Shown in pieces: positions 28,407-40,538 of a stretch of DNA of 64,000 bases. This stretch comes from an uncultured Gammaproteobacteria bacterium. Its GTDB lineage: Bacteria > Pseudomonadota > Gammaproteobacteria > UBA9214. The position numbers and the translations under genes are program-made. Within the stretch, counting starts at the first letter, position 1; each line of letters begins with the position of its first letter. The notes under the pieces were generated by a model, which worked only from the letters and a program-made list of their open reading frames with translations, made no database searches and was not told where the DNA came from. The stretch lies in contig CAVYZN010000032.1 in assembly GCA_963773065.1 (NCBI GenBank), positions 160,001-224,000 of the forward strand, given 5' to 3'.

Positions 28407-28509
28407 CCATTAATCAGTGTTACAAGCAGCGGCTTCTTCGAAAGCCGTGACTCAGGTGAAAGCATATGAACCTGTAAATTTTTCATATCAAAGCATGGAG
28501 GAGACGAAG

Positions 28510-29813
28510 ATGAATAAAAGTACTGTTACATACCGTATAAAGCGGGCTCTGATTGGCAGTGTAGCATCATTGGTTTTTCTTTCTGTTGCAAATGTAAGCT
28601 GGGCCGATACGTGGACGGGTACGGTTGATGATTTATGGTCAACGAACGGTAACTGGCTGGATGGCAGCGCGCCAACAAGCACGGATTCGGTTACATTTAA
28701 TTCCGGCGATACAGGTGGTACAAATTTCGTCGATACGAATTTCACAATTACCGGCCTTGAATACCTCATCAATGGTACTCACACGACTAACCTCAACAGT
28801 GGAATCACCCTGCAAGTCGATCAATATCTCAGCCTCGGTTTCCGAAAACACCACCAGTAGCGCAGGCACGGCCGATGGCACGCTGGTGTTGGGCGGCAAT
28901 TCGGTGCTGAATGTGGGCACACCGACGGTGCGGGCGGATCTCGAACCTGGGCTGGAACGAGTCGAGCAACGCGGCGAGTGACGCCACGGGCGTGCTCAAT
29001 GCGCTGGACGGCACGGCGAATCTACGGCTCAACGAGTTCAACATCGGGCGTTCGGTGCGCGGGCAGAGCGCCACGGGGACGCTGCTGTGGGATCAGCCGG
29101 GAGCGATCGATGCGGATGTGATCTATCTGAGCCGCGGTGCAGGTGCGGTGGGCACGATTGCGACGCCGGCCGGCGGGACGTTGAAGCTCGGCTCGGCCAG
29201 TGCGCCGGTGGGGTTTCTGCGCCTTGGCTGGAATGACACCGGTTCTGCGGGAGCGGCCAGCGGCACGCTGGATTTGAGCGTGAACAATCCGACCTTCGAG
29301 GCGGTGATCAGCAACGAGCTGAGCCTGGGTCATAACGGCATTCCCACTGGTGTGGGCACGGCCGATGGCACGCTGGTGCTGGGCGGCAATTCGGTGCTGA
29401 ATGTGGGCACACCGACGGTGCGGGCGGATCTGAACCTGGGCTGGAACGAGTCGAGCAACGCGGCGAGTGACGCCACGGGCGTGCTCAATGCGCTGGACGG
29501 CACGGCGAATCTACGGCTCAACGAGTTCAACATCGGGCGTTCGGTGCGCGGGCAGAGTGCGACAGGGACGTTCTCGATGGGCAGTAACGCTAATGTAGAC
29601 GTCAACGTCGTCAATATTGGGACCGGGACTAACGCTACTGGAACAGTTAATCTGACCGGTGGTCTGATGACCGCAAACATCATCAATCTCGATCAAGGAG
29701 CGTTTAATTTTACCGGTGGCCGGTTAGCGGTCAATACCTTCAACGGCACGCTCACTGATAAAGGTGGTACGCTTGCGCCCGGTGTAGCGCCGAACACGAC
29801 CTCGATTGCGGGG
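28510..29813 (+). pseudogene. Secreted beta-repeat (autotransporter-like / probable PEP-CTERM) protein, truncated by group II intron
   Basis: Signal peptide, WTG..WST.GNW, Gly/Thr/Asn-rich repeats, GGTLAPG; frame runs into the intron and no 3' half is found. Confidence 0.7.
28865..29570 (+). repeat. ~215-bp near-identical direct repeat (28865-29080 and 29355-29570)
   Basis: GGCACGGCCGATGGCACGCTGGTG...CGTTCGGTGCGCGGGCAGAG occurs twice, 490 bp apart. Confidence 0.92.
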
Positions 29814-31808
29814 ATGCGACCTGGCAAGGTCGCGTAATCGAGTGGGTGCGAATCCCACCCGGGTAGCCGCTAGCCACGGGCCCGGTATTGAGCCTTGCAG
29901 TCAGCGGGGTAACTTGCTGATTGATGCGTAGGTACGAAAGGAGGCGAGGTGCAAAGGTAACAGGTGATGCTGACCCTGAAGACGTTGAGTCCCGAAAACG
30001 GCATCGTTGGAATCGGCCGATGGGTTCCCGCACCCAGCAGGCAACAGTTCCTGACGCGTGAGAGGCAAGTGTCAGGGAACGCCCCGGGATCTAAGGTCGC
30101 TTCGAGCCTCACAAGGCGATTGCGCGGTAACCAGGGAGATCCGACAGTCGGCGCAGAGGGATCTGCGTACCCTCGGACAAGCCTAGCAAGCGAGGAAGAG
30201 GGCGGTGGCGGTCGGAAGTCGGGGGTGCCCATACGAGCGATGAAGCCCGGTAATGCGGGTGGAGCAAAGGGGCACCGGTTTGAGACAACGGGTAAGGGCA
30301 ACATGGCCCGACACTGAGCGGACTGTGACCATGACAACGAAGTTTATCCGTTTCACCGAGAAGGCGCGTGCGGAACCGCAGTTGCGGTTCAATGCCCTGA
30401 TGGGGCTGCTGTTCGACCCGGAGGGGTTGCACGCCAGCTTCGGGCGTCAAGATGGAAAGAAGGCGCCCGGAGTGGATGGAATCAGGAAAGTGGACTATGC
30501 GGAAGGGCTGGAAAGCCGGCTAACGGAGCTGTCGTGTAGCCTGAGGCAAATGGGCTATCGGCCGCAGCCGGTGCGGCGAGTATACATCCCGAAAGGGAAT
30601 GGCCGTCGTCGTCCGCTGGGCATTCCTTGTTTTGAGGATCGCATTGTGCAGGATCGACTGAGTCTGATTCTGCAGGCGATATGGGAGCCGGAGTTTCAGG
30701 ACTGCTCTTTTGGTTTTCGTCCCGGGCGCAGCGCGCACGATGCGCTGCGTCGAGTGGCGGAGGTCATTACCAACGAGCGCACGCAGTGGGTGGTAGAGGC
30801 CGACATTAAAGGCTTCTTCGATCATGTTTCGCATTCCCACCTGCTACGGTTTCTGGAACACCGCATCGCAGACCCGAACGTTCTGCGAATCCTGAAGCGG
30901 TTTCTCAAGGCAGGGGTAATGGAAGATGGGGTGGTCAACGAGGTGAATGAAGGGACCCCACAAGGTGGGTTGGTATCACCGGCATTGGCTAATATTTACC
31001 TCCATTACGTGCTGGACCTGTGGTTCGAGCGGCGTTACAAGAAGTCCTGTCGTGGTAAAGCCTTTTTGGTGCGCTACTGCGACGACTTCATCGCCTGCTT
31101 TCAGCACGAGGATGAGGCGCATCGCTTTCACCGGGAATTGGGGGAGCGAGTGGCTGCCTTTGACCTGGAAGTCGAGCCCAGCAAGACGGCTGTGCTGCGT
31201 TTCGGTACGCAAGCGAAAAGGGATTGCCATCGGGATGGGCTAGGTCGTCCCCAGACGTTCAGCTTCCTGGGGTTGACCCACTACGTCGGTCGCAGTCGTC
31301 GCGGCCGCTTTGTGGTGGGTCGCAAGACTGAGCGGAAGCGGTTCAATGGCAAACTCAAGCAGTTGAACGAGCGTCTGTGCCGGCTACGGATGGCCGGTGG
31401 CAAGGCCATGATGGACTATGTGCGGCGGCATCTTGAAGGGCACATCCGTTACTATGGGGTGAGTGGCAACTACCGGGCGTTGAGTCGCTACGTCATGGCG
31501 GCGAGCCGCCTACTGTACAAGTGGCTCAACCGGCGTAGTCAACGCCGTTCTATCCCTTGGAAGCGGTTCCGTCCGATATTGCTGGAACGCGTGTTGCCGC
31601 GTATACGCATTGTTCACAACCTCTATCCTAAGCCGATCGGAATGACTCAATCTGGGAGCCGGATGGTGTAACGCACCTTGTCCGGTTCTACGAGGGGTCG
31701 GGGACGTACTGCTGTGTGGACACGCTATTGTGGCACCGCCGGGAAACCAGGCGGAACAGAGAAAACAAACAGTGTCCGGGCATGGCGGGAGGAACCGACC
31801 TACTCACC
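29814..31808 (+). mobile_element. Group II intron (complete), RT/maturase-encoding, extended domain VI
   Basis: 5' ATGCG (GTGCG-like); DV GAGCCGGATGGTGTAACGCACCTTGTCCGGTTC at 31656-31688; DVI basal stem GAGGGGTCGG/CCGACCT[A]CTC with bulged A, ending AC(C). Confidence 0.9.
30331..31671 (+). CDS. ltrA: Group II intron reverse transcriptase/maturase, no endonuclease domain
   Basis: KAPGVDG, RPLGIPCFEDRIVQ, SFGFRPGRSAHDAL, ADIKGFFD, GTPQGGLVSPALANIYLH, RYCDDF, FSFLG, X/thumb domain. Confidence 0.95.
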   Translation: MTTKFIRFTEKARAEPQLRFNALMGLLFDPEGLHASFGRQDGKKAPGVDGIRKVDYAEGLESRLTELSCSLRQMGYRPQPVRRVYIPKGNGRRRPLGIPCFEDRIVQDRLSLILQAIWEPEFQDCSFGFRPGRSAHDALRRVAEVITNERTQWVVEADIKGFFDHVSHSHLLRFLEHRIADPNVLRILKRFLKAGVMEDGVVNEVNEGTPQGGLVSPALANIYLHYVLDLWFERRYKKSCRGKAFLVRYCDDFIACFQHEDEAHRFHRELGERVAAFDLEVEPSKTAVLRFGTQAKRDCHRDGLGRPQTFSFLGLTHYVGRSRRGRFVVGRKTERKRFNGKLKQLNERLCRLRMAGGKAMMDYVRRHLEGHIRYYGVSGNYRALSRYVMAASRLLYKWLNRRSQRRSIPWKRFRPILLERVLPRIRIVHNLYPKPIGMTQSGSRMV

Positions 31809-31866
31809 AAAACCGCACGTCCGGGACTGTGCCGGGAGCTCCGGGTAACCGGAGTCCCTACGGCGG
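31809..31866 (+). mobile_element. 3' remnant (distal DV plus DVI) of a second group II intron
   Basis: AAAACCGCACGTCCGG matches the 3' half of DV with the AC bulge; GCCGGGAGCTCCGG-GTAA-CCGGAGTCCCT[A]CGGC is a DVI hairpin with bulged A. Confidence 0.8.
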
Positions 31867-31944
31867 AGGCGGCAGAGGTATTACGATGCGTGAGAACCTG
31901 CCCCAATGGTAGAGGGACATGGACAGAACGAGGAGACAAGAGCG

Positions 31945-32712
31945 ATGACAAAGCACAAGACCGGAACACGTGAAGAGTGGCTCGCAGCGCGGCTCGAGCT
32001 GCTCAAGGCCGAGAGGGAACTCACGCACCGCAGCGACGAGCTGGCGCGGCGGCGACAGGAACTCCCGTGGGTTCGGATCGACAAGGAGTATCGATTCGAG
32101 ACCGATGAACGCAGCGCCTCGCTGGCAGACCTCTTTAGAGGGCGCTCGCAGCTCCTCATGTACCACTTCATGTTCGGGCCCGACTACACGGCGGGGTGTC
32201 CCTCCTGCTCGGCAATCGCGGACGGTTTCAACGGGTCCGTCGTGCACCTAGCCAACCATGACGTGACGCTCTGTGCGGTGTCGCGGGCGCCACTCGCGAA
32301 GCTTCAGGCGTACAAGCGGCGGATGGGCTGGAGCTTCCCTTGGGCTTCGTCGTTCGGCAGCGACTTCAACCACGACTTCGGTGTGGAGTACACGGAGGCC
32401 GAACAGCGGGCAGGAGTGCTCGATTACAACTTCGCAACGACCGAGTGGCCACCGGTGCCGGTGGACCAGCAGGAAGGGCCGCTCGCAGAGATCCCAGCCA
32501 GCGTCGGTTTGGACTGGGCGACGTACGCGCGCGAGAGGTTTGGCGTGAGCGCGTTCGTGCTCGAGGATGGCGTCGTCTACCACACCTATTCCGCCTATTC
32601 GCGCGGAGTGGACGGCCTCTGGGGCGCGTACCAGTGGCTCAATCGTGCCCCCAAGGGACGCAACGAGACCAACTACTGGTGGCGCCGCCATGACGAGTAC
32701 GACAAGCGCTGA
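31945..32712 (+). CDS. DUF899 thioredoxin-like protein
   Basis: TREEWLAARLELL..RRQELPWV..LFRGRSQLLMYHFMFGP..GCPSCS. Confidence 0.9.
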   Translation: MTKHKTGTREEWLAARLELLKAERELTHRSDELARRRQELPWVRIDKEYRFETDERSASLADLFRGRSQLLMYHFMFGPDYTAGCPSCSAIADGFNGSVVHLANHDVTLCAVSRAPLAKLQAYKRRMGWSFPWASSFGSDFNHDFGVEYTEAEQRAGVLDYNFATTEWPPVPVDQQEGPLAEIPASVGLDWATYARERFGVSAFVLEDGVVYHTYSAYSRGVDGLWGAYQWLNRAPKGRNETNYWWRRHDEYDKR

Positions 32713-32757
32713 GCCAAGTAGTGGTGTCATGTTGATGGCACAACCTGGGGGCAGGAA

Positions 32758-33561
32758 ATGTCACGACGCATGATTCCCGAGCGAGCATCCCAGCGAACCT
32801 TCTTCGGCGTCTCAGCGCTGCTCGTTGCCGCCAGCGCGGCGGTAACTATCGTCTGGTGCACATCCATGTCGGCAATGGGCGGTATGCCCATGCCCGGCGA
32901 CTGGACGATGTCGATGGCGTGGATGCGGATGCCCGGACAGACGTGGCCCGGCGCCGCGGCGTCGTTCCTCGGCATGTGGATCGTGATGATGGTAGCGATG
33001 ATGCTACCGTCCTTGGCCCCAATGCTGTGGCGCTACCGCCAGGCCGTAGGCAGCACAGGCGAGACGCACCTGGGTCCGCTGACCGCGCTCGTGGGCGTGG
33101 GTTACTTCTTCGTCTGGACCATCTTCGGAATGGTCGCTTTTCCGTTGGGCGTCGCGCTGGCGGCGGTTGAGATGCAGATGCCGGTGCTGGCGCGCACCGT
33201 TCCGATCGCGGTCGGCGTGTTAATCGTCATCGCCGGCGCGCTCCAGTTCAGCGCGTGGAAGGCGCGTCACCTCACCTGCTGCCGGGAGGCGCCCGGGCGC
33301 GGTCGTACGTTGCCGACCGACGCCGGCACGGCCTGGCGACATGGCCTGCGCATCGGACTTCACTGCAGCCGCTGCTGTGTCGGTTTCATGGCGATTCTCC
33401 TGGTCATCGGGGTCATGGACCTTCGCGCGATGGCTGTCGTGGCCGCAGCCATCACCGTCGAACGGGTTGCACCGGCCGGTGAGCGCGTCGCGCAAGCCAT
33501 CGGGGCCGTCCTCGTCGGGGCAGGGTTGTTCTTGATCGCGCGAGCAGCTGGGCTCGGATGA
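32758..33561 (+). CDS. DUF2182 predicted metal-binding membrane protein
   Basis: MWIVMMVAMMLPS, QFSAWKARHLTCCR, GLHCSRCC..GVMDL; usual partner of DUF899. Confidence 0.88.
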   Translation: MSRRMIPERASQRTFFGVSALLVAASAAVTIVWCTSMSAMGGMPMPGDWTMSMAWMRMPGQTWPGAAASFLGMWIVMMVAMMLPSLAPMLWRYRQAVGSTGETHLGPLTALVGVGYFFVWTIFGMVAFPLGVALAAVEMQMPVLARTVPIAVGVLIVIAGALQFSAWKARHLTCCREAPGRGRTLPTDAGTAWRHGLRIGLHCSRCCVGFMAILLVIGVMDLRAMAVVAAAITVERVAPAGERVAQAIGAVLVGAGLFLIARAAGLG

Positions 33562-33691
33562 TGATCTGCGTCCACTCGACAGGAGGTCCGCAAACGTAGC
33601 GGAGACGGCGGCGTTTCTGGCCTCGGACCGGGCTCGCGCTATGACCGGAAGAGTCACAAGACGTGTGGATCACTCGTGGATTGACCAAACC

Positions 33692-33775
33692 GCCTAACAC
33701 ATATGAGGCCTCCGCTTTGCGGGGGTTCCCTCGTTCGCTTCGCTCACTCGGCACCGGTGAGCGCGGGCGTTAGAG
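33692..33775 (+). other. attC site (carries an IS110-end footprint)
   Basis: GCCTAAC ... GGTGAGCGCGGGC-GTTAGAG. Confidence 0.75.
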
Positions 33776-33818
33776 CACTCTTTTAAGCCAATCAGATTCT
33801 GGCTATAATCTGGCCAGA

Positions 33819-34109
33819 ATGCGATTCGAAATCATACTTTCGCCAGAAGCGGTTGAAGACCTTCGAAGGCTCAAGGCGAAGTTTCGGTCTGAGGTTCGCG
33901 ATGCACTTACCCACCTACGGAACGAGCCCAAGAAGACAAGTCGAAGCCGAATCAAGCGGTTACGTGGTCTCACCAAGCCGCAATATAGGCTTCGAGTTGG
34001 TGAATGGCGTATCTTCTATGATGTGTCCGGATCGACGGTGGAGATTCTGGCGATAGTGCAAAAATCGGAGGCAGAGTCATGGCTGGCCCAGTTCGGAAAT
34101 CACGAGTAA
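33819..34109 (+). CDS. RelE/ParE family toxin
   Basis: IKRLRGLTKPQYRLRVGEWRIFYDV; own TATAAT within an inverted repeat upstream. Confidence 0.88.
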   Translation: MRFEIILSPEAVEDLRRLKAKFRSEVRDALTHLRNEPKKTSRSRIKRLRGLTKPQYRLRVGEWRIFYDVSGSTVEILAIVQKSEAESWLAQFGNHE

Positions 34110-34354
34110 AGAAGGCTTCCTTATCGGAAGTTAAAGATGATCTATCCAGGTTTCTCCGTGAAGCGGAGAAACAAGATGTTCTCATAACCCGTCATGGCAA
34201 GCCGGCAGGCATCCTGATTGGGTTTGCATCTGAAGAGGATTGGTTTGATTATCGCTTGGAAAACGATCCAAGTTTTCTGGAGAGAATTGAATCTGCCCGA
34301 GCAAGTTTGCGTGCTGGGCGCGGAGTGAGGCTTGAAGATGTAAAAATCAAGTGA
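34106..34354 (+). CDS. Phd/YefM family antitoxin (start codon unclear)
   Basis: LSEVKDDLSRFLREAEKQDVLITRHGKPAGILIG. Confidence 0.85.
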   Translation, partial: VKKASLSEVKDDLSRFLREAEKQDVLITRHGKPAGILIGFASEEDWFDYRLENDPSFLERIESARASLRAGRGVRLEDVKIK

Positions 34355-34361
34355 CGCCGCG

Positions 34362-34430
34362 CTCTAACAACACGATTGACTGGGACGCGTCGCAAAAGAC
34401 ACGCCGCGCCCGTCATCGTAGTCGTTATGC
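34362..34430 (+). other. attC site
   Basis: CTCTAAC..ACGATTGACTGGGACGCG / CGCGCCCGTCATCGT..GTTATGC imperfect palindrome. Confidence 0.8.
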
Positions 34431-34524
34431 GCTGGGTGCTGTCGAAATTGAGCCTGCTCGTTCGTCTACTACATGCCACTTCCGGCGTATACCCGCTTCA
34501 CGGACTACTCTATAAAAAGGAAAT

Positions 34525-34977
34525 ATGCTCATGACCACGAACACCGTCCAGTTCCACCGCGTGCTCCGCGCGACGCCCGAAAAAATCTACCGAGCCTTCC
34601 TTGACGCGGACGCAATGGCAAGGTGGCTTCCACCGAGCGGATTCACTGCCAAGGTTCACCATATGGACGCAAAAGTCGGTGGCACCTATAAGATGTCGTT
34701 CACGAACTTCACCACAGGCCACAGCCACTCTTTCGGCGGCACATATCTCGAACTCGCGCCACACAACCGCATTCGTTACACGTCGAAATTCGACGATCCG
34801 AACTTGGTCGGAGAAATGCAAACGACGATAACCTTGAAGAAAGTATCCTGTGGGGCTGAGTTAAACATCGTGCAAGAAGGCATCCCCAACGTCATTCCCA
34901 CTGACGCGTGTTATCTCGGCTGGCAGGAGTCGCTCGCTATTCTGGCGAAACTTGTCGAACCAGAGATTCCAGACTAG
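34525..34977 (+). CDS. SRPBCC (AHSA1-like) family protein
   Basis: HRVLRATPEKIYRAFLDADAMARWLPP..CYLGWQESL. Confidence 0.88.
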   Translation: MLMTTNTVQFHRVLRATPEKIYRAFLDADAMARWLPPSGFTAKVHHMDAKVGGTYKMSFTNFTTGHSHSFGGTYLELAPHNRIRYTSKFDDPNLVGEMQTTITLKKVSCGAELNIVQEGIPNVIPTDACYLGWQESLAILAKLVEPEIPD

Positions 34978-36139
34978 TGTACTGCTTCGTAATTAATGGA
35001 ACTAAAAAGTGGGCTCTGTTGTCTCACCACCAAATGACAGGCAGGAGCCTCCTGATGCGCATAGCCCCGAAAATCATGCTGAGCAGTGAAGAAGAAAAGA
35101 CACTGAGGCGACTCGCGCGCTCGAATACGGCGAGTGTACGCATGGCGCGGCGTGCGCGAATGATCTTGCTGGCGGCGGCCGGCAAGGACAACACGACGAT
35201 TGCCACTGAGCTGGGCATTGGCCGGGTGCAGGTGGGGCGTTGGCGGGAACGCTATGTCGAAGGCGGGTTGGCGGCCATCGAACAGGATCTGCCCCGTGGT
35301 GGGCGCAAACCCACGGTGGATGCGGCCGAGATTGTCCGCTTGACCACCCAGACCACGCCCAAGGCGGCGACCCACTGGAGCACGCGCACGCTGGCCAGGG
35401 AAGTCGGGGTGAGTGACACCACGGTATTGCGGGTGTGGCAGGCGCATGGCCTGAAACCGCATCGCGTCGAGACCTTCAAGGTTTCTCGCGATCCGAGGTT
35501 CATCGAGAAACTGGAAGACATCGTCGGGCTTTATCTCTCGCCACCGGAACACGCCCTGGTGCTGTGTTGCGATGAGAAAAGCCAGGTCCAGGCGCTGGAC
35601 CGAACCCAGCCGGGGCTGCCCCTGAAGAAGGGCCGGGCGGCCACCATGACGCATGACTACAAACGCCATGGCACGACCACGCTGTTCGCCGCCCTCAACA
35701 TCCTGGATGGCCAGGTGATCGCCAGTTGCCAGCAACACCACCGTCATCTCGAATGGCTCGACTTCCTGAAGAAAATCGACCGGGAAACGCACAAGGGAAA
35801 GGAACTGCACTTGGTGTGTGACAACTACGCCACCCATAAGCACCCCAAGGTCGTGGAATGGCTCGATAAACATTCGCGCTTCCACATCCACTTCACACCG
35901 ACTTCGGCCTCCTGGTTGAACATGGTTGAACGCTTCTTCCGTGACATCACCACCGAGCGCCTGCGCCGCGGCGTCTTTACCAGCGTCCCGGAACTCACCG
36001 CCGCCATTCATGAATACGTCGCCGCGCACAATGAAAACCCGAAACCCTTCATCTGGACGGCAAAGGCCAACGACATCCTGCAGAAAGTCGTTCGCGCCAA
36101 TCGCCGTTTAAGTTCCAAACAGAATGAAGCACTACACTA
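34975..36139 (+). mobile_element. IS630 family insertion sequence
   Basis: Inverted ends CTAGTGTA(C/G)TGCTTC...TGGAACT, CTAG/TA target at both sides. Confidence 0.92.
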
Positions 36140-36140
36140 G
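35055..36140 (+). CDS. IS630 transposase
   Basis: HWSTRTLA, CCDEKSQVQALDR, THDYKRHGTTTLFAAL, DNYATHK, PTSASWLNMVERFF. Confidence 0.95.
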   Translation: MRIAPKIMLSSEEEKTLRRLARSNTASVRMARRARMILLAAAGKDNTTIATELGIGRVQVGRWRERYVEGGLAAIEQDLPRGGRKPTVDAAEIVRLTTQTTPKAATHWSTRTLAREVGVSDTTVLRVWQAHGLKPHRVETFKVSRDPRFIEKLEDIVGLYLSPPEHALVLCCDEKSQVQALDRTQPGLPLKKGRAATMTHDYKRHGTTTLFAALNILDGQVIASCQQHHRHLEWLDFLKKIDRETHKGKELHLVCDNYATHKHPKVVEWLDKHSRFHIHFTPTSASWLNMVERFFRDITTERLRRGVFTSVPELTAAIHEYVAAHNENPKPFIWTAKANDILQKVVRANRRLSSKQNEALH

Positions 36141-36201
36141 CTTGAGCGTTATGGCTTTAATGTATACATTGTGCTGCAACAATCCCTACGGAGGTGATCA
36201 G

Positions 36202-36430
36202 ATGCGACCGGATCAAATCAAAAACGAAATTAACAGGCTGGATTTATCGGAAAAGTTGCTTCTCGTTTAAGATATTTTGGACTCTATCGCCACCAGCAAT
36301 TCTGAAATCCCCATGCTGGAGTGGCAAAAACAAGAGCTGGATAGAAGATACAAAGAATACAAGGAAGGGAATTTGGGGCTTCATGATTGGAAGGCGGTAC
36401 ACGAGGGTCTGCGTGATAACTACAAATGGA
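36202..36430 (+). pseudogene. Addiction module component (TIGR02574-like) with internal stop
   Basis: MRPDQIKNEINRLDLSEKLLLV*DILDSIA..EWQKQELDRRY. Confidence 0.65.
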
Positions 36431-36509
36431 ACTACGTTACTCGGACAGCAAAAAGCGCCGCGCCTTCGTCGCTCCGCTTTTGACTGCCGGTTATAGCGAG
36501 CGGTATCAA
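36430..36509 (+). other. Degenerate attC site
   Basis: CAGCAAAAAGCG..CGCTTTTGACTG palindrome; core degenerated to GGTATCA. Confidence 0.5.
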
Positions 36510-36542
36510 CCATAAGTCGAGCACAACCATCCGGAGATAAAC

Positions 36543-36926
36543 ATGACACGAGATCAAAAACTCAAATACCTCAGTGTTGCTCTGTGGATTTTCGGTATCA
36601 TTTTCATCGTTGGTATTTATGCCATGATGATGTGGATCTGGCCATCGGGCTGGGGCTGGGAGCCTCGTCAGCCGGAGTATGAACAGATGATTATGGGGAT
36701 ATATGCAACTTTGGGTGTATTTCTCATCCTTGCAGCAAGAAATCCAATGGAAAATCTGAGCCTGATATGGTTCACCATCTGGTCAAGTTTCGTGCATGGC
36801 GGAATCATGCTTGTTCAGGCTATTGAGGACGAAAACGAGCGAGCAAACCTTCTCGGTGATGTTCCAGCACTATTTCTGGTCGCAATTGTACTGTGGGTTT
36901 TGGTACCTAAGAAGCGTGAAGCATAA
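36543..36926 (+). CDS. Small membrane protein (DUF6632-like)
   Basis: WPSGWGW..EYEQMIMGIYATLGVFL..WSSFVHGGIM..LLGDVPAL. Confidence 0.7.
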   Translation: MTRDQKLKYLSVALWIFGIIFIVGIYAMMMWIWPSGWGWEPRQPEYEQMIMGIYATLGVFLILAARNPMENLSLIWFTIWSSFVHGGIMLVQAIEDENERANLLGDVPALFLVAIVLWVLVPKKREA

Positions 36927-36934
36927 CCACAGGC

Positions 36935-37010
36935 TGCTAACAAAGGGCTCCACGCGGATTGCCTGCAGCGCTGGCGCGCTTTCGGGAATTGGTGAGCCCT
37001 CGCGTTGGGC
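36935..37010 (+). other. attC site
   Basis: TGCTAAC-AAAGGGCTCCAC ... GGTGAGCCCTCGC-GTTGGGC. Confidence 0.82.
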
Positions 37011-37105
37011 ATCCAAGAATCTAGGAGATTTCGCGCCGGAGTTGATCCTGGCTAAAGCCTGCGCTCTGGACCTCGTCGTCGTGCAAACCACCAAGGAGGT
37101 GCATC

Positions 37106-37540
37106 ATGAGCAACGAAAAAGTTTACAAAGGTAGCTGCTTTTGCGGCGCGGTTCAGTTTACGGTCAGCGGTGAGCCGGCCGCAATGGGTTATTGCCATTG
37201 TGAGTCGTGCCGAAGCTGGTCGGCAGGGCCTGTCAACGCCTTCACTTTATGGAAACCCGAAGCGGTGCAGATCACGCGGGGAGCAGACAACATCGGCACT
37301 TACAACAAGACGCCGCGCAGTTATCGCAAATGGTGCAAGACGTGTGGAGGCCACCTCTTCACTGAGCATCCCGGCTGGGGACTCACCGACGTGTATGCAG
37401 CGGTCATTCCTGACTTCCCGTACCACGCCGGCATCCATGTCAACTATCAGGAGACGAAGCTGCACATCAAGGACGGGTTGCCGAAGATGAAGGACTTTCC
37501 GAAGGAAATGGGTGGATCGGGCGTCAGCGTAGCGGAATAA
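37106..37540 (+). CDS. GFA (CENP-V) family Zn-binding protein
   Basis: GSCFCG..CHCESCR..WCKTCG. Confidence 0.9.
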   Translation: MSNEKVYKGSCFCGAVQFTVSGEPAAMGYCHCESCRSWSAGPVNAFTLWKPEAVQITRGADNIGTYNKTPRSYRKWCKTCGGHLFTEHPGWGLTDVYAAVIPDFPYHAGIHVNYQETKLHIKDGLPKMKDFPKEMGGSGVSVAE

Positions 37541-37574
37541 CACATTCGGCTCTTCAAGCTCCACTATCCCAGGC

Positions 37575-37651
37575 GCCCAACAAGGCGCTCCAGCAGCCGT
37601 CTTGCCTTAGCTTCGCTGCGGCAAGACGGCGGCTGAGCTTCGTCGATAGCC
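37575..37651 (+). other. attC site (core mutated GTT>GAT)
   Basis: GCCCAAC..GCCGTCTTGCC / GGCAAGACGGC..GATAGCC. Confidence 0.8.
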
Positions 37652-37698
37652 AAAAGAATCAGCTTGCATCGTGTAATCCAGTGGATTACCTTTAATGC

Positions 37699-38055
37699 GT
37701 GCTGACTACTATCACCGAAATGCCTGAGTATATTCGCCGCGCCAATGAACTCCTCAGCGAATCAGAACGTAAATCGGTCATTGACTACTTTGCTGCACAT
37801 CCGCGAGCTGGCGACCTCATGGAGGGTACTGGCGGAATTCGGAAATTGCGCTGGTGGCGTGGAACCAAAGGTAAAAGTGGTGGCGTTCGCGTCATCTTTT
37901 ACTACCACGATGAACGTATTCCTTTATATCTATTGACTGTTTTTGGAAAGAACGAACGCGCTAACTTGTCAAAAGCGGAGCGAAACGAGTTGGCCAAATT
38001 GGTAAATGTGCTGGTACGTACCGCACTGGAGAAATCTCATGGCAACAGCATATGA
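37699..38055 (+). CDS. HigB/RelE-type toxin
   Basis: GTGGIRKLRW..GKSGGVRVIFYY..LLTVFGKNERANLS; operator GTAATCCAGTGGATTAC upstream. Confidence 0.88.
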   Translation: MLTTITEMPEYIRRANELLSESERKSVIDYFAAHPRAGDLMEGTGGIRKLRWWRGTKGKSGGVRVIFYYHDERIPLYLLTVFGKNERANLSKAERNELAKLVNVLVRTALEKSHGNSI

Positions 38056-38323
38056 CAGCATCGCGAAAGGTCTGCGTGAGGCCATTGACCTCAACAAGGG
38101 CAAGCCTGTCGCCGCAAAGACCCACCGCCCTGAAGAAATTGACGTTGCACAGTTGCGCCATAGCTTAGGTTTGACGCAGACTGAGTTTGCAGCCAAATTC
38201 TGCATCAGCCTTGGCACGCTTCGGCATTGGGAGCGAGGCGATCGAAAGCCTCATGGCCCTGCACTTGCCTTGCTGCACATCGTAGCCAAGGAGCCTAAAG
38301 CCGTTCTTAGAGCTTTGGGCTAA
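38039..38323 (+). CDS. HTH-XRE antitoxin (HigA-like)
   Basis: DVAQLRHSLGLTQTEFA..TLRHWERGDRKPHGPA. Confidence 0.88.
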   Translation: MATAYDSIAKGLREAIDLNKGKPVAAKTHRPEEIDVAQLRHSLGLTQTEFAAKFCISLGTLRHWERGDRKPHGPALALLHIVAKEPKAVLRALG

Positions 38324-38325
38324 CA

Positions 38326-39912
38326 CATATGAGGCCCCCGTCTGTCAACGGGCACGAACAAACGATACCGGTGACTAAAGTGCCAGTACCAATAACATCC
38401 GGCGTTACAGGTGATCTGCCTTTCAATTCAAGGACAGGTTCTGCCCTAAACACATATAGAGAGTCATAGTCAGGCCCATTGGACCTGTTGCTCTAGAATC
38501 AATTCAAGTTCTCCTTCTACCGGCTCATTCATGAGTGACAAGGGCTTGATCATAGGAATGATCATCCAGTTAGTACCGAGCTCGGGTAAGGCGCAGGACC
38601 TGAAAACCGGGTAAAGGGTGGAAGCACATGCAGGCACTAATCAATGCGCAAAGGCTATCACGCGGCGCAGACGGACAGGATTGAGTAGTCGATGCTACAA
38701 AGGTCGCGGTCCGCACGTGCTTTCGCGTATCGACGCCAGTTAGACGAGGAGTTGCCTGCATGCCTTCCATTAACTGTTCAGAAAACGCTGCTGGTCGAAC
38801 ACCGTTTTCCGCTGCAGCATAAAATAAACCGCCCGCCCCAGCTTGTGGGCCAGGATGGTTAAGGCCCGGGCCTTGTTGTGCTTGTTGGCCATCTCTTCCA
38901 ACCAGGCTTGCGCATCGGGGTTCTTGCGCAGAAAGAGCACGGCGGCTTCACTGAAGGCCCACTTCAGGTAGGCGTTGCCGATCTTCCTGCCAGTGGTGCC
39001 ATAGGACTTACCGGCAGACTCTTTCTTGCATTTGATCAGCCGGCTGTAAGAGGCGAAGTCCTGCACCGTCGGGAAGCGTTCAATGGTGTGGATCTCATAG
39101 AGGATGACCAGTGACAGGATTTCACCGATGCCGGGTACGGTGCGCAGGAGAATCAGGCTGTGCTGGTCACAGCTCCTGGCGTGCTGGAGGATATGCCATT
39201 CCACCTTGCTGAGTTGTTTATCGTAGAAGTCGATGAGGTTCAGGTCCAGTTCGATGCTTTTTTGCACACTGGGATCGGCGAAGCGTTCGGCGATGCCAGC
39301 CCGATTGAAGGCATAACGGAGATTCTTCTTGATTTCCGGAAGGTTGTACTGGCTGTTGGTGTTATGCACGTGTGCCAGCAATTCCGAGCGCTTGCGCATC
39401 AGGTGCATGCGCCGGCGCATAAGGTCACGAGTGCCACGCATCTCGCGCGGGTAGACATAGGCTTGTGGGAACATGCCGCCGCGCATGAGGACGGCGATTT
39501 TGTTGGAATCGATCTTATCGTTCTTTGCCTTGCCACCGTGGATGGCGCGCATATACAGGGCGTGCCCAAGAATGAAGGCGATGCCTTTCTCACGGCACAG
39601 GTCAGCGACCCAGTACCAGGAGAACATGCACTCCACCCCGATCACCAGATCATCCCGATAAGGGGTAATGAGTTTCAGCAGCGCTTCGGGATTGGCTTTG
39701 ATGTTCTTGTGGACCAGCAAGTTACCCTCCTGGTCCAGGATACAGACATAGAGCATACGGGCATGCAGATCGATACCGCAGTAATATTTGTGTGGTTGCG
39801 TGTAGAATTTCATCGAGGTCTCCTCCTTCGTCGTAGTGCATGTGACACTAATAGGATGGTAGGTTATACCTCCCAAGCCTGAAATCGCGGGGGGAGGCCT
39901 CAATGAGTATCA
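38326..39912 (-). mobile_element. IS110 family (IS1111-like) element inserted in an attC site
   Basis: Subterminal IR TGAGGCC(C/T)CC; CA dinucleotide at both junctions; removing it restores attC GGCTAACAAGTCATTC...GTTAGGC (ends 39991). Confidence 0.88.
38770..39813 (-). CDS. IS110 family recombinase/transposase
   Basis: GIDLH, VEC, KNDKIDS (DEDD domain); TVPGIG, ESAGK, GNAYLKWAFSEAA. Confidence 0.94.
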   Translation of the reverse strand: MKFYTQPHKYYCGIDLHARMLYVCILDQEGNLLVHKNIKANPEALLKLITPYRDDLVIGVECMFSWYWVADLCREKGIAFILGHALYMRAIHGGKAKNDKIDSNKIAVLMRGGMFPQAYVYPREMRGTRDLMRRRMHLMRKRSELLAHVHNTNSQYNLPEIKKNLRYAFNRAGIAERFADPSVQKSIELDLNLIDFYDKQLSKVEWHILQHARSCDQHSLILLRTVPGIGEILSLVILYEIHTIERFPTVQDFASYSRLIKCKKESAGKSYGTTGRKIGNAYLKWAFSEAAVLFLRKNPDAQAWLEEMANKHNKARALTILAHKLGRAVYFMLQRKTVFDQQRFLNS

Positions 39913-40012
39913 AGTCATTCAACAGGACGTTTTAAAGCGGCGCTCCTTCGTCGCCACCGATTTAAAGCGTCTGTTAATTCTTTCGTTAGGCGTTCAACCG
40001 AAGTGGCGTGAA

Positions 40013-40468
40013 ATGAACATATGGGTGGACGCGGATGCATGTCCCGTGGTGATCAAGGATATTCTGTTCAGAGCGGCGGAACGTGCCGGGGTGCAGTTGA
40101 CGCTTGTGGCTAATCAGCCTGTGCGCATACCGCCATCGCGCTGCATTAAATTGCTTCAAGTAACATCTGGTTTTGATGTCGCTGACAATGAGATAGTTAA
40201 AAGGCTTGGCGCTGGCGATCTTGTGATCACAAGCGATATACCATTGGCGGCGGAGGTGATCGATAAAGGGGGCCATGCGCTCACACCTCGCGGCGAACTG
40301 TATTCATCTGACAATATTAAAGCTCGTCTAGATATGAGAAATTATATGGATGCTCTACGAGCCAGTGGCATAGATACCGGTGGTCCGCCGGCGCTAAGCC
40401 AAAGTGATCGGAAATCTTTCGCGAATCACCTGGATAAATTATTAACCAAGCATGCAAGAAATGCCTAA
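40013..40468 (+). CDS. yaiI: YaiI/YqxD family protein (DUF188)
   Basis: [39 protein letters not shown]. Confidence 0.92.
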
Positions 40469-40519
40469 CGAGGAAAATCCAGCCGACCTCCTTCGTCGCC
40501 GGCTGGTTAGACGTTAGGC
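40463..40519 (+). other. attC site (57 bp)
   Basis: GCCTAAC..CCAGCCG / CGGCTGG..GTTAGGC. Confidence 0.8.
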
Positions 40520-40538
40520 GCAAACAAAGGAGGCAAGC

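Follow-up and report, generated by a model that had tools for sequence, protein, structure and literature searches.

A 64,000-nucleotide stretch of DNA from an uncultured gammaproteobacterium (the window) carries, at positions 31809..31867 of its plus strand, what is very probably the 3' remnant of an endonuclease-less, IIB-like group II intron. Half of DV and all of DVI are retained, and the clade to which the intron belongs homes to the R' core of integron attC sites on the top strand. The remnant stands at the head of a cassette array and is itself interrupted, in its DV loop, by a complete group II intron of a second lineage.

In the available text of two reviews, the group II introns that target attC sites are treated as an oddity confined to a single sublineage of class C, which enters cassette arrays backwards and blocks cassette transcription (PMC4424553, PMC8876359). 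The introns in question, called IIC-attC, insert at TTGT/T in the R'' box, on the bottom strand and antisense to the cassettes, according to the accessible sections of PMC7923331 and PMC3001079. The findings below lead to a wider proposal, for which we see slightly better than even prospects: a class-E-like (IIB) clade found in several phyla would have taken the integron core independently, on the top strand, at GTTR^RRY and through a 5-nt EBS1, as a spliceable, integrase-carried intron with YCGCG...G-R termini and an AAC triad, and would in turn be the target of a second lineage, which homes into DV loops. If true, retroelements would have adopted integron recombination sites as safe havens at least twice, an unrelated lineage having taken the opposite strand and the other box of attC. 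For cassette expression and mobility, the consequences of a spliceable intron in sense orientation would also differ.

A cassette array headed by nested introns

Between 28.4 and 40.5 kb, the plus strand of the window holds, in order, part of an autotransporter-like gene, a complete group II intron, a remnant of 58-59 nt and a cassette array. The gene part, repeat-rich and comprising the 5' portion of the gene (28417..29812, plus strand), was delimited by comparison with an intact paralogue on contig C6 (L003), which is 89.5% identical across window positions 29500-29821 and diverges afterwards; a Pfam search with 28417..29812 returned no family. It ends abruptly at TGCGGG (29807-29812), a 6-nt string that it has in common with the lost 5' strand of the host DV and that is also present in the intact paralogue. 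The gene part contains an internal duplication (28854-29081 and 29344-29570) whose copies lie about 490 nt apart and are 93-98% identical; one copy has an additional base, and the frame is broken by a stop codon at 28858-28860.

The first cassette (31868..33776, plus strand) was defined by Pfam, by sequence and by an R'' match at offset 7. It encodes a DUF899 gene (31945-32712) and a PpoB2/DUF2182 gene (32758-33561), both on the plus strand and assigned by Pfam, followed by an attC (33692-33776, plus strand) assigned from the sequence. This attC is opened by CCGCCTAAC (33690..33698, plus strand), an R'' box with two extra bases that is the reverse complement of GTTAGGCGG, and is closed by GTTAGAGC near 33770. 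Further plus-strand cassettes, assigned by sequence and Pfam, occupy 33773..40520 (ParE/Phd, AHSA1, DUF6632, GFA, RelE-HTH and DUF188), with the second attC of the array at 34362-34430 (plus strand). Cassette 2 starts with GTTAGAGC and has its own R'', GCTCTAAC, and cassette 7 combines GATAGCC with GGCTAAC. An IS630-type element inserted at ~35000-36150 interrupts the attC of the third cassette, and an IS110-type element lies on the minus strand at 38770-39903. Cassettes on one strand, attC sites between them and R'' boxes that match each cassette's own start identify the region as an integron cassette array. In the assembly from which the window comes, estimated as 90.9% complete, the best match to the intI model TIGR02249 scored 81.8 bits against a cut-off of 265; the array is a CALIN as assembled, or else its integrase was left unassembled or has been deleted.

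A scan for attC folds that required an AAC:GTT pair in the MFE structure caught the site at 34362-34430 and missed that at 33692-33776; the majority of its 43 plus-strand matches fell outside the cassette array, and it was dropped. On contig C11 of the same genome, a ParE cassette (L004:2270-2460, compared with window 33960-34110) begins within the ParE frame at GTTACGT, which would fit the use of a secondary recombination site.

The complete intron (29813..31808, plus strand, with boundaries placed to about 1 nt) was recognized by Rfam and by Pfam RVT_1. All of its parts are on the plus strand: D1-D4 at 29849-30099 (Rfam RF02005, 113.5 bits), an RT ORF at 30331-31671 (RVT_1) and DV at 31656-31689 (RF00029, 32.8 bits, below the cut-off of 40), followed by a long DVI closed by GAGGGGUCGG/CCGACCU-A-CUC and a 3' end reading ..CUCACC. 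A candidate EBS1, (U)CCCGCA (30026..30032, plus strand), found at the position that UAACG occupies in the attC-homing family, is complementary to the 5' exon UGCGGG(G), that is, to the 5' strand of the DV upper helix.

Other copies of this inner intron have the same kind of host. A second copy on contig C5 (L002), 99.85% identical across window 29807-31819, occupies the DV loop of another intron, one of RF02001 type. Four copies in genome G009 (L119, L123, L124 and L125), whose RTs are 73-78% identical to the inner-intron RT, lie between GAGCGUAGUGCGGG and AAAACCGCACGCUGCGUUC (a close variant in L125), which are the halves of a DV of a third kind. All six copies examined are in DV loops, at UGCGGG^AAAACCGCA, and their hosts represent at least three intron types. 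The arrangement is a twintron, an intron inside an intron at a site set by base pairing of EBS1 CCCGCA with UGCGGG, and the three nested levels of the original prediction (an integron, an att-targeting intron and a DV-targeting intron) are borne out. In the C5 host intron, the ORF (L002:3560-3760, minus strand) joins the N-terminus of the RT straight to its C-terminal tail, an apparent internal deletion of the RT gene.

Relatives and the rule of insertion

The remnant is homologous to full-length, RT-encoding introns. Contig C11 of the same genome holds an uninterrupted, ORF-less relative (L004:791-1559), whose DV-DVI is 87% identical to the remnant over 53 nt (31809-31861); full-length, ORF-bearing relatives were found at L024:4768-6772 (G048) and L025:4889-6900 (G030), both in genomes of the same family, and others in dozens of public MAGs. 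A protein-seeded scan of public genomes yielded 584 relatives of the L025 RT, and the best 79 of these 584 loci were used. The remnant fragment on its own drew no intron match from Rfam.

Among 33 distinct 5' junctions, 24 directly follow GTT on the cassette strand, as expected from the proposal that the host intron lies in cassette orientation: 23 read GTTR (22 counted by script, with L060 realigned by eye) and one, L050, reads GTTC. The remaining nine follow GCCAUU (three loci, beside an IS4-family transposase), CGCUG, CGCUA, UUUAUU, AUGGUG, UUUGCG or UUUGUG. The sequence upstream of the junction GTT is otherwise unconserved and often attC-like, with YTAAC R'' boxes at several junctions.

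The determinant of this specificity is suggested by the intron itself. In the attC-homing family a D1 loop, ..GGGUUUUAACGUAC.., contains UAACG, complementary to the 5' exon CGUUA. Where the exon differs, the loop differs with it: AAUGGC accompanies a GCCAUU exon (L025, L059, L041), UAGCG a CGCUA exon (L046), UAACU an AGUUA exon (L047) and GAACG a CGUUC exon (L050, the junction after GTTC). The last exon base and the first EBS1 base occur in four combinations, A-U, G-U, C-G and U-A. Comparison thus shows that the intron RNA reads a 5' exon ..CGUUR through an EBS1 loop of 5-6 nt (UAACG) and inserts at GTTR^RRY, and this covariation amounts to a simple targeting rule. Because the same base stands on either side of the intron, GTT^A and GTTA^ are inseparable by sequence alone and are told apart by pairing; as EBS1 and the 5' exon covary down to the last exon base, we place the 5' splice site after GTTR. 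The original prediction had put the host intron in the integron core at GTT^AGGC; the core site stands, and the exact position shifts by one base, to GTTA^GGC. The intron start is the canonical GUGCG in distant members and UCGCG (17 junctions), GCGCG (5) or a similar string in closer ones.

A hairpin of 32-34 nt before GUGNGAGUCCC was considered as a 5'-exon target in the style of class C and was rejected: it is D1 of the intron, because it is conserved with the intron, because in distant members it opens with GUGCG and because EBS1 pairs with the bases that precede it. A subclade after GCCAUU (L025/L039, L059, L041 and L042), with RTs that are 94-100% identical, adjoins an IS4-family transposase gene wherever flanking sequence is present (L025/L039, L059), L041 and L042 being short contigs; it is a retargeted branch of the attC-homing clade.

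A rival reading of these junctions would be that the family homes to a short CGTTR by ordinary IBS1 pairing and is not specialized for integrons, the presence of attC sites being incidental. The conserved 5' exon is just 5-6 nt long, nine of the 33 junctions are elsewhere, and EBS1 retargets easily. A random CGTTR is, however, expected about once per 500 nt, and the junctions are enriched for hairpins. An MFE AAC:GTT criterion applied to the junctions gave few hairpins and was replaced by a looser spanning-hairpin score with controls, 600 GTTs drawn from the same loci. A hairpin spanning from AAC to GTT at or below -15 kcal/mol was present at 17 of 25 junction GTTs, a proportion that leaves some room for incidental sites, and at 146 of the 600 control GTTs, a 2.8-fold enrichment (Fisher p = 8.6e-6).

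The surroundings of the introns bear on the same question. No intI was found within 3.5 kb of the relatives: of 97 ORFs of at least 230 aa, 64 were scanned, leaving out those overlapping the intron or antisense to a longer ORF, and 0/64 exceeded the cut-off of 265, the best scores being 163.8 (L060), 88.1 (L071) and 72.8 bits (L069). Some members of the clade lie beside IS4 or IS91 transposases with no visible attCs. Against this, the array in G048 does adjoin an integrase: about 4 kb upstream of the intron, the other strand carries an intI gene that scores 444 bits (cut-off 265). The junctions are at cassette heads on the cassette strand, and fragments of the same family occur in another cassette array, as reported in the available text of a 2021 paper (PMC7923331). 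As a separate observation, IS91-family transposase genes were seen within 3.5 kb of L050/L077, L056, L060 and L071.

Also against incidental homing, the R'' complement of the cassette's own attC is completed across the intron in three loci. The L024 intron has GTT before it and AGCTGC after it; the R'' of the cassette's own attC, GCAGCTAAC, shows the core to be completed over 9 nt. In L067 the flank GGGGC fits the R'' GCCCCAAC of a visible attC, with the core completed over 8 nt. In the window, GTTA joined to GGCGG (from the AGGCGG flank) fits the cassette's own R'', CCGCCTAAC at 33690-33698; a lost 5' exon GTTA and the first-cassette start GGCGG would together restore GTTAGGCGG. The GTTA exon, whose own copy in the window is lost, is read from the relatives and from R'' and is to that extent putative. 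A match of 6 nt at one fixed place is expected about once in 4096 trials, and the same completion recurs in L024 and L067, so the window match is more than chance. A bulk test for exact 8-mers of R'' at 33 junctions gave 3 matches at the predicted offset and 0-3 at others, weak and not significant alone, and the R'' matches were then judged one by one. The L004 cassette has a paralogue without the intron at window 37644, with GATAGCC in the place of the GTTA[intron]GCT of L004. Taken with the hairpin enrichment, these matches leave homing to CGTTR without regard to attC an unlikely account, and homing to the attC core is preferred.

The remnant and its 3' end

The DVI of a group II intron is a helix in which an A is bulged 7-8 nt before the 3' end, and a complete DV is about 34 nt long, with an AGC triad and a 2-nt bulge. 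The letters of the remnant are as originally described: AAAACCGCACGTCCGGGACTGTGCCGGGAGCTCCGGGTAACCGGAGTCCCTACGGCGG stands at 31809-31866, AGGCGG comes next (31867-31872), and CCGCCTAAC is at 33690-33698. What survives of DV (31809..31827, plus strand) is the loop and the 3' strand, recognized by alignment with the uninterrupted DVs ..UGCGGGAAAACCGCACGUCCGGGAC.. of relatives: an AAAA loop, CCGCA as the 3' strand of the upper helix, a CG bulge and UCCGGGAC as the 3' strand of the lower helix. DVI (31831..31867, plus strand), by contrast with this half DV, is whole. Its helix pairs 31831-31844 with 31849-31858 and 31861-31864 around a GUAA loop (31845-31848); U31859 and A31860 are bulged, and G31865, G31866 and A31867 form the tail. 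A31860, the likely branch point, sits 6-7 nt before the intron end, and we count it as the bulged A expected of DVI.

The limits of DVI were set by covariation, with which an Rfam alignment of L004 agrees. The remnant DVI aligns ungapped with 35 other DVI sequences of the attC-homing family, giving 36 regions and 33 distinct rows. Columns 38-41 (31861-31864) pair with columns 8-11 (31831-31834); pair 9/40 is CG in 18 rows, UA in 8, AU in 3 and GC in 3, and pair 10/39 is GC in 21, AU in 4, CG in 4, GU in 1 and UG in 1. In the 14-pair helix 97.8% of cells are paired, compared with 41-54% after the partner was shifted by 1-3 columns, and 8 pairs have changes on both sides; these values were reached by 0 of 500 shuffles. 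The Rfam DV-DVI model scores 42.3 bits on L004 (cut-off 40), and its last two positions (consensus A-Y) fall on the two bases past the basal helix.

The covariation of the basal DVI helix shows that the intron runs past CUAC, to 31866 or 31867 in the window copy, and that the attC-homing family ends in ..CCUA-CNNC-G(G)-R rather than in AY. This agrees with the suggestion that the host intron ends at 31866 and lacks the canonical AY. In the full-length relatives, too, AGGC stays outside the intron; GTT precedes it at 24 of the 33 distinct junctions, and one of the relatives lies about 4 kb from intI. The first reading had placed the end at 31861, in a canonical ..CUAC (AY), where BLAST similarity to L004 stops; GGCGG/AGGCGG would then be plain exon and the R'' match a coincidence. 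This reading is ruled out by the DVI covariation and the Rfam alignment, and we give it very little credence: the four bases that follow CUA change in step with the 5' strand of DVI, the Rfam model reaches past them, a branch A 1 nt from the intron end would be abnormal, and R'' completion is repeated in L024 and L067. Less credible still is that 31809-31866, which directly follows the complete intron 29813-31808, is a 3' extension or alternative DV/DVI of it, as known in other introns from the available text of PMC4424553, given that the near-identical C5 copy differs from window 31820 onward, that the stretch has the 3' strand of DV alone and that it is homologous to the DV-DVI of another family, with an RT only 43% identical.

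As the 3' remnant of a distinct host intron, the window copy is unable to splice and is a dead copy. Further 5'-truncated remnants of the attC-homing family stand at cassette heads at L024:8335-8397 and L059:6883-6925; only part of DV plus DVI is retained in them, as in the window copy and in the published fragments H.ha.F1/F2.

Class, precedents and proposed history

The lineage is IIB-like. Both the attC-homing family and the inner intron match Rfam RF02005, and their RTs are 43% identical. The L025 ORF matches Pfam RVT_1, with a GIIM match below the cut-off; an endonuclease domain is absent, and the ribozyme part is about 640 nt (531 + 106 nt in L025). In a quick maximum-likelihood tree of 52 RTs, every GTTR junction falls within one 30-row group (SH-aLRT 99) in which the retargeted members are nested, and the inner intron and its G009 relative fall in the sister group. 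The DV triad of the clade is AAC in 26 of 34 distinct DVs where AGC is expected, with AGC in 6 distant members, AAU in 1 and 1 unreadable; Rfam marks the triad pair (L004:1487-1520 and relatives) as non-standard. Ribozyme activity with an AAC triad is not assured on this showing. Many copies nevertheless appear mobile, with intact RT genes, and the AAC triad in them is a small puzzle for ribozyme chemistry.

The IIC-attC group (S.ma.I2 and relatives) resembles this family in lacking an endonuclease, in homing to attC, in a very short IBS1 beside a hairpin and in its residence inside cassette arrays. It is, in contrast, of class C, whereas the family described here matches RF02005; and it enters the bottom strand at R'', in the direction opposite to the cassettes, whereas this family enters GTTR^RRY of R' on the top strand, in sense. 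Neither a class C RNA or RT nor a bottom-strand, antisense TTGT/T insertion was found. That the host belongs to a lineage other than IIC-attC, as had been proposed, is upheld by the RF02005 matches at both introns, the ribozyme part of about 640 nt and the use of R' on the top strand.

Sense-strand attC introns have a precedent from 2021, when IIB introns in sense orientation and fragments of class E were reported next to attC sites. In the available text of their paper, Sonbol and Siam describe H.ha.F1/F2, 5'-truncated 'bacterial class E (IIB)' fragments in a CALIN of Halorhodospira halochloris (PMC7923331). By eye, from sequences printed in the supplement, the H.ha.F1/F2 IEPs are close to the L024 and L025 RTs, about two thirds identical over the C-terminal half, and the match extends to the translated stretch before the ORF (PMC7923331). 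The fragments also lie in cassette orientation, with attC-like structures upstream and their 3' ends alone surviving (PMC7923331). They and the attC-homing family are probably the same lineage, the class E label resting on that by-eye comparison; the accessible part of the paper differs in having no full-length copy and in leaving the site, the EBS1 rule, the termini and the clade undefined (PMC7923331). The same source describes the sense-oriented UHB.I2 (IIB1, CL1 IEP) directly after an attC, with non-canonical ends UUGCG..GU, and cites as 'unusual' a IIC intron on the top strand in an integron of Enterobacter cloacae (PMC7923331). UHB.I2 is like the present introns in its sense position after attC and in its ends; both it and the E. 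cloacae intron belong to other RT classes (CL1 and class C). A literature search, with subscription journals outside its coverage, found beyond Sonbol and Siam no account of the lineage, its site, its clade or the pairing rule.

These observations suggest a history in three steps. The host intron would have entered the first-cassette core at GTTA^GGCGG. The inner intron (29813-31808) would later have homed into the loop of the host DV, at UGCGGG^AAAACCGCA, by way of its EBS1 CCCGCA. The third step would have removed all that lay upstream of that loop, namely D1-D4, the 5' strand of DV, the attC or attI and possibly intI. On its 5' side the inner intron meets the autotransporter-like gene precisely at TGCGGG, and of the host DV only the 3' side is present. 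The loss may have come about by a deletion between two TGCGGG strings; on a second route, the inner intron would have recombined with another copy of itself that had entered the autotransporter-like gene ectopically. A search of the assembly for the reciprocal junction of the 5' loss found none. Nested introns of Methanosarcina acetivorans offer a parallel, in repeated homing into group II introns and loss of copies by recombination (available text of PMC4424553); here, unlike there, the target is the DV loop (6/6) and the outer intron occupies an integron core site. The window copy is of value for the lineage to which it points and for illustrating how nested introns scramble an array.

From insertion at GTTR^RRY it follows that a full-length copy takes a sense position at the head of the downstream cassette. 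Such an intron could be spliced from the cassette transcript and, because the upstream attC keeps its G^TT crossover point, should travel with a cassette moved by integrase; we infer splicing, mobility, travel with cassettes and an effect on cassette expression from this geometry. Among public sequencing runs, 24 contained parts of L004:600-1800, with a word share of at most 0.31. Four of the 24 were examined as contigs (three RNA, one DNA); no contig in these four joined across the intron, and the pieces recovered were relatives at 85-99% identity.
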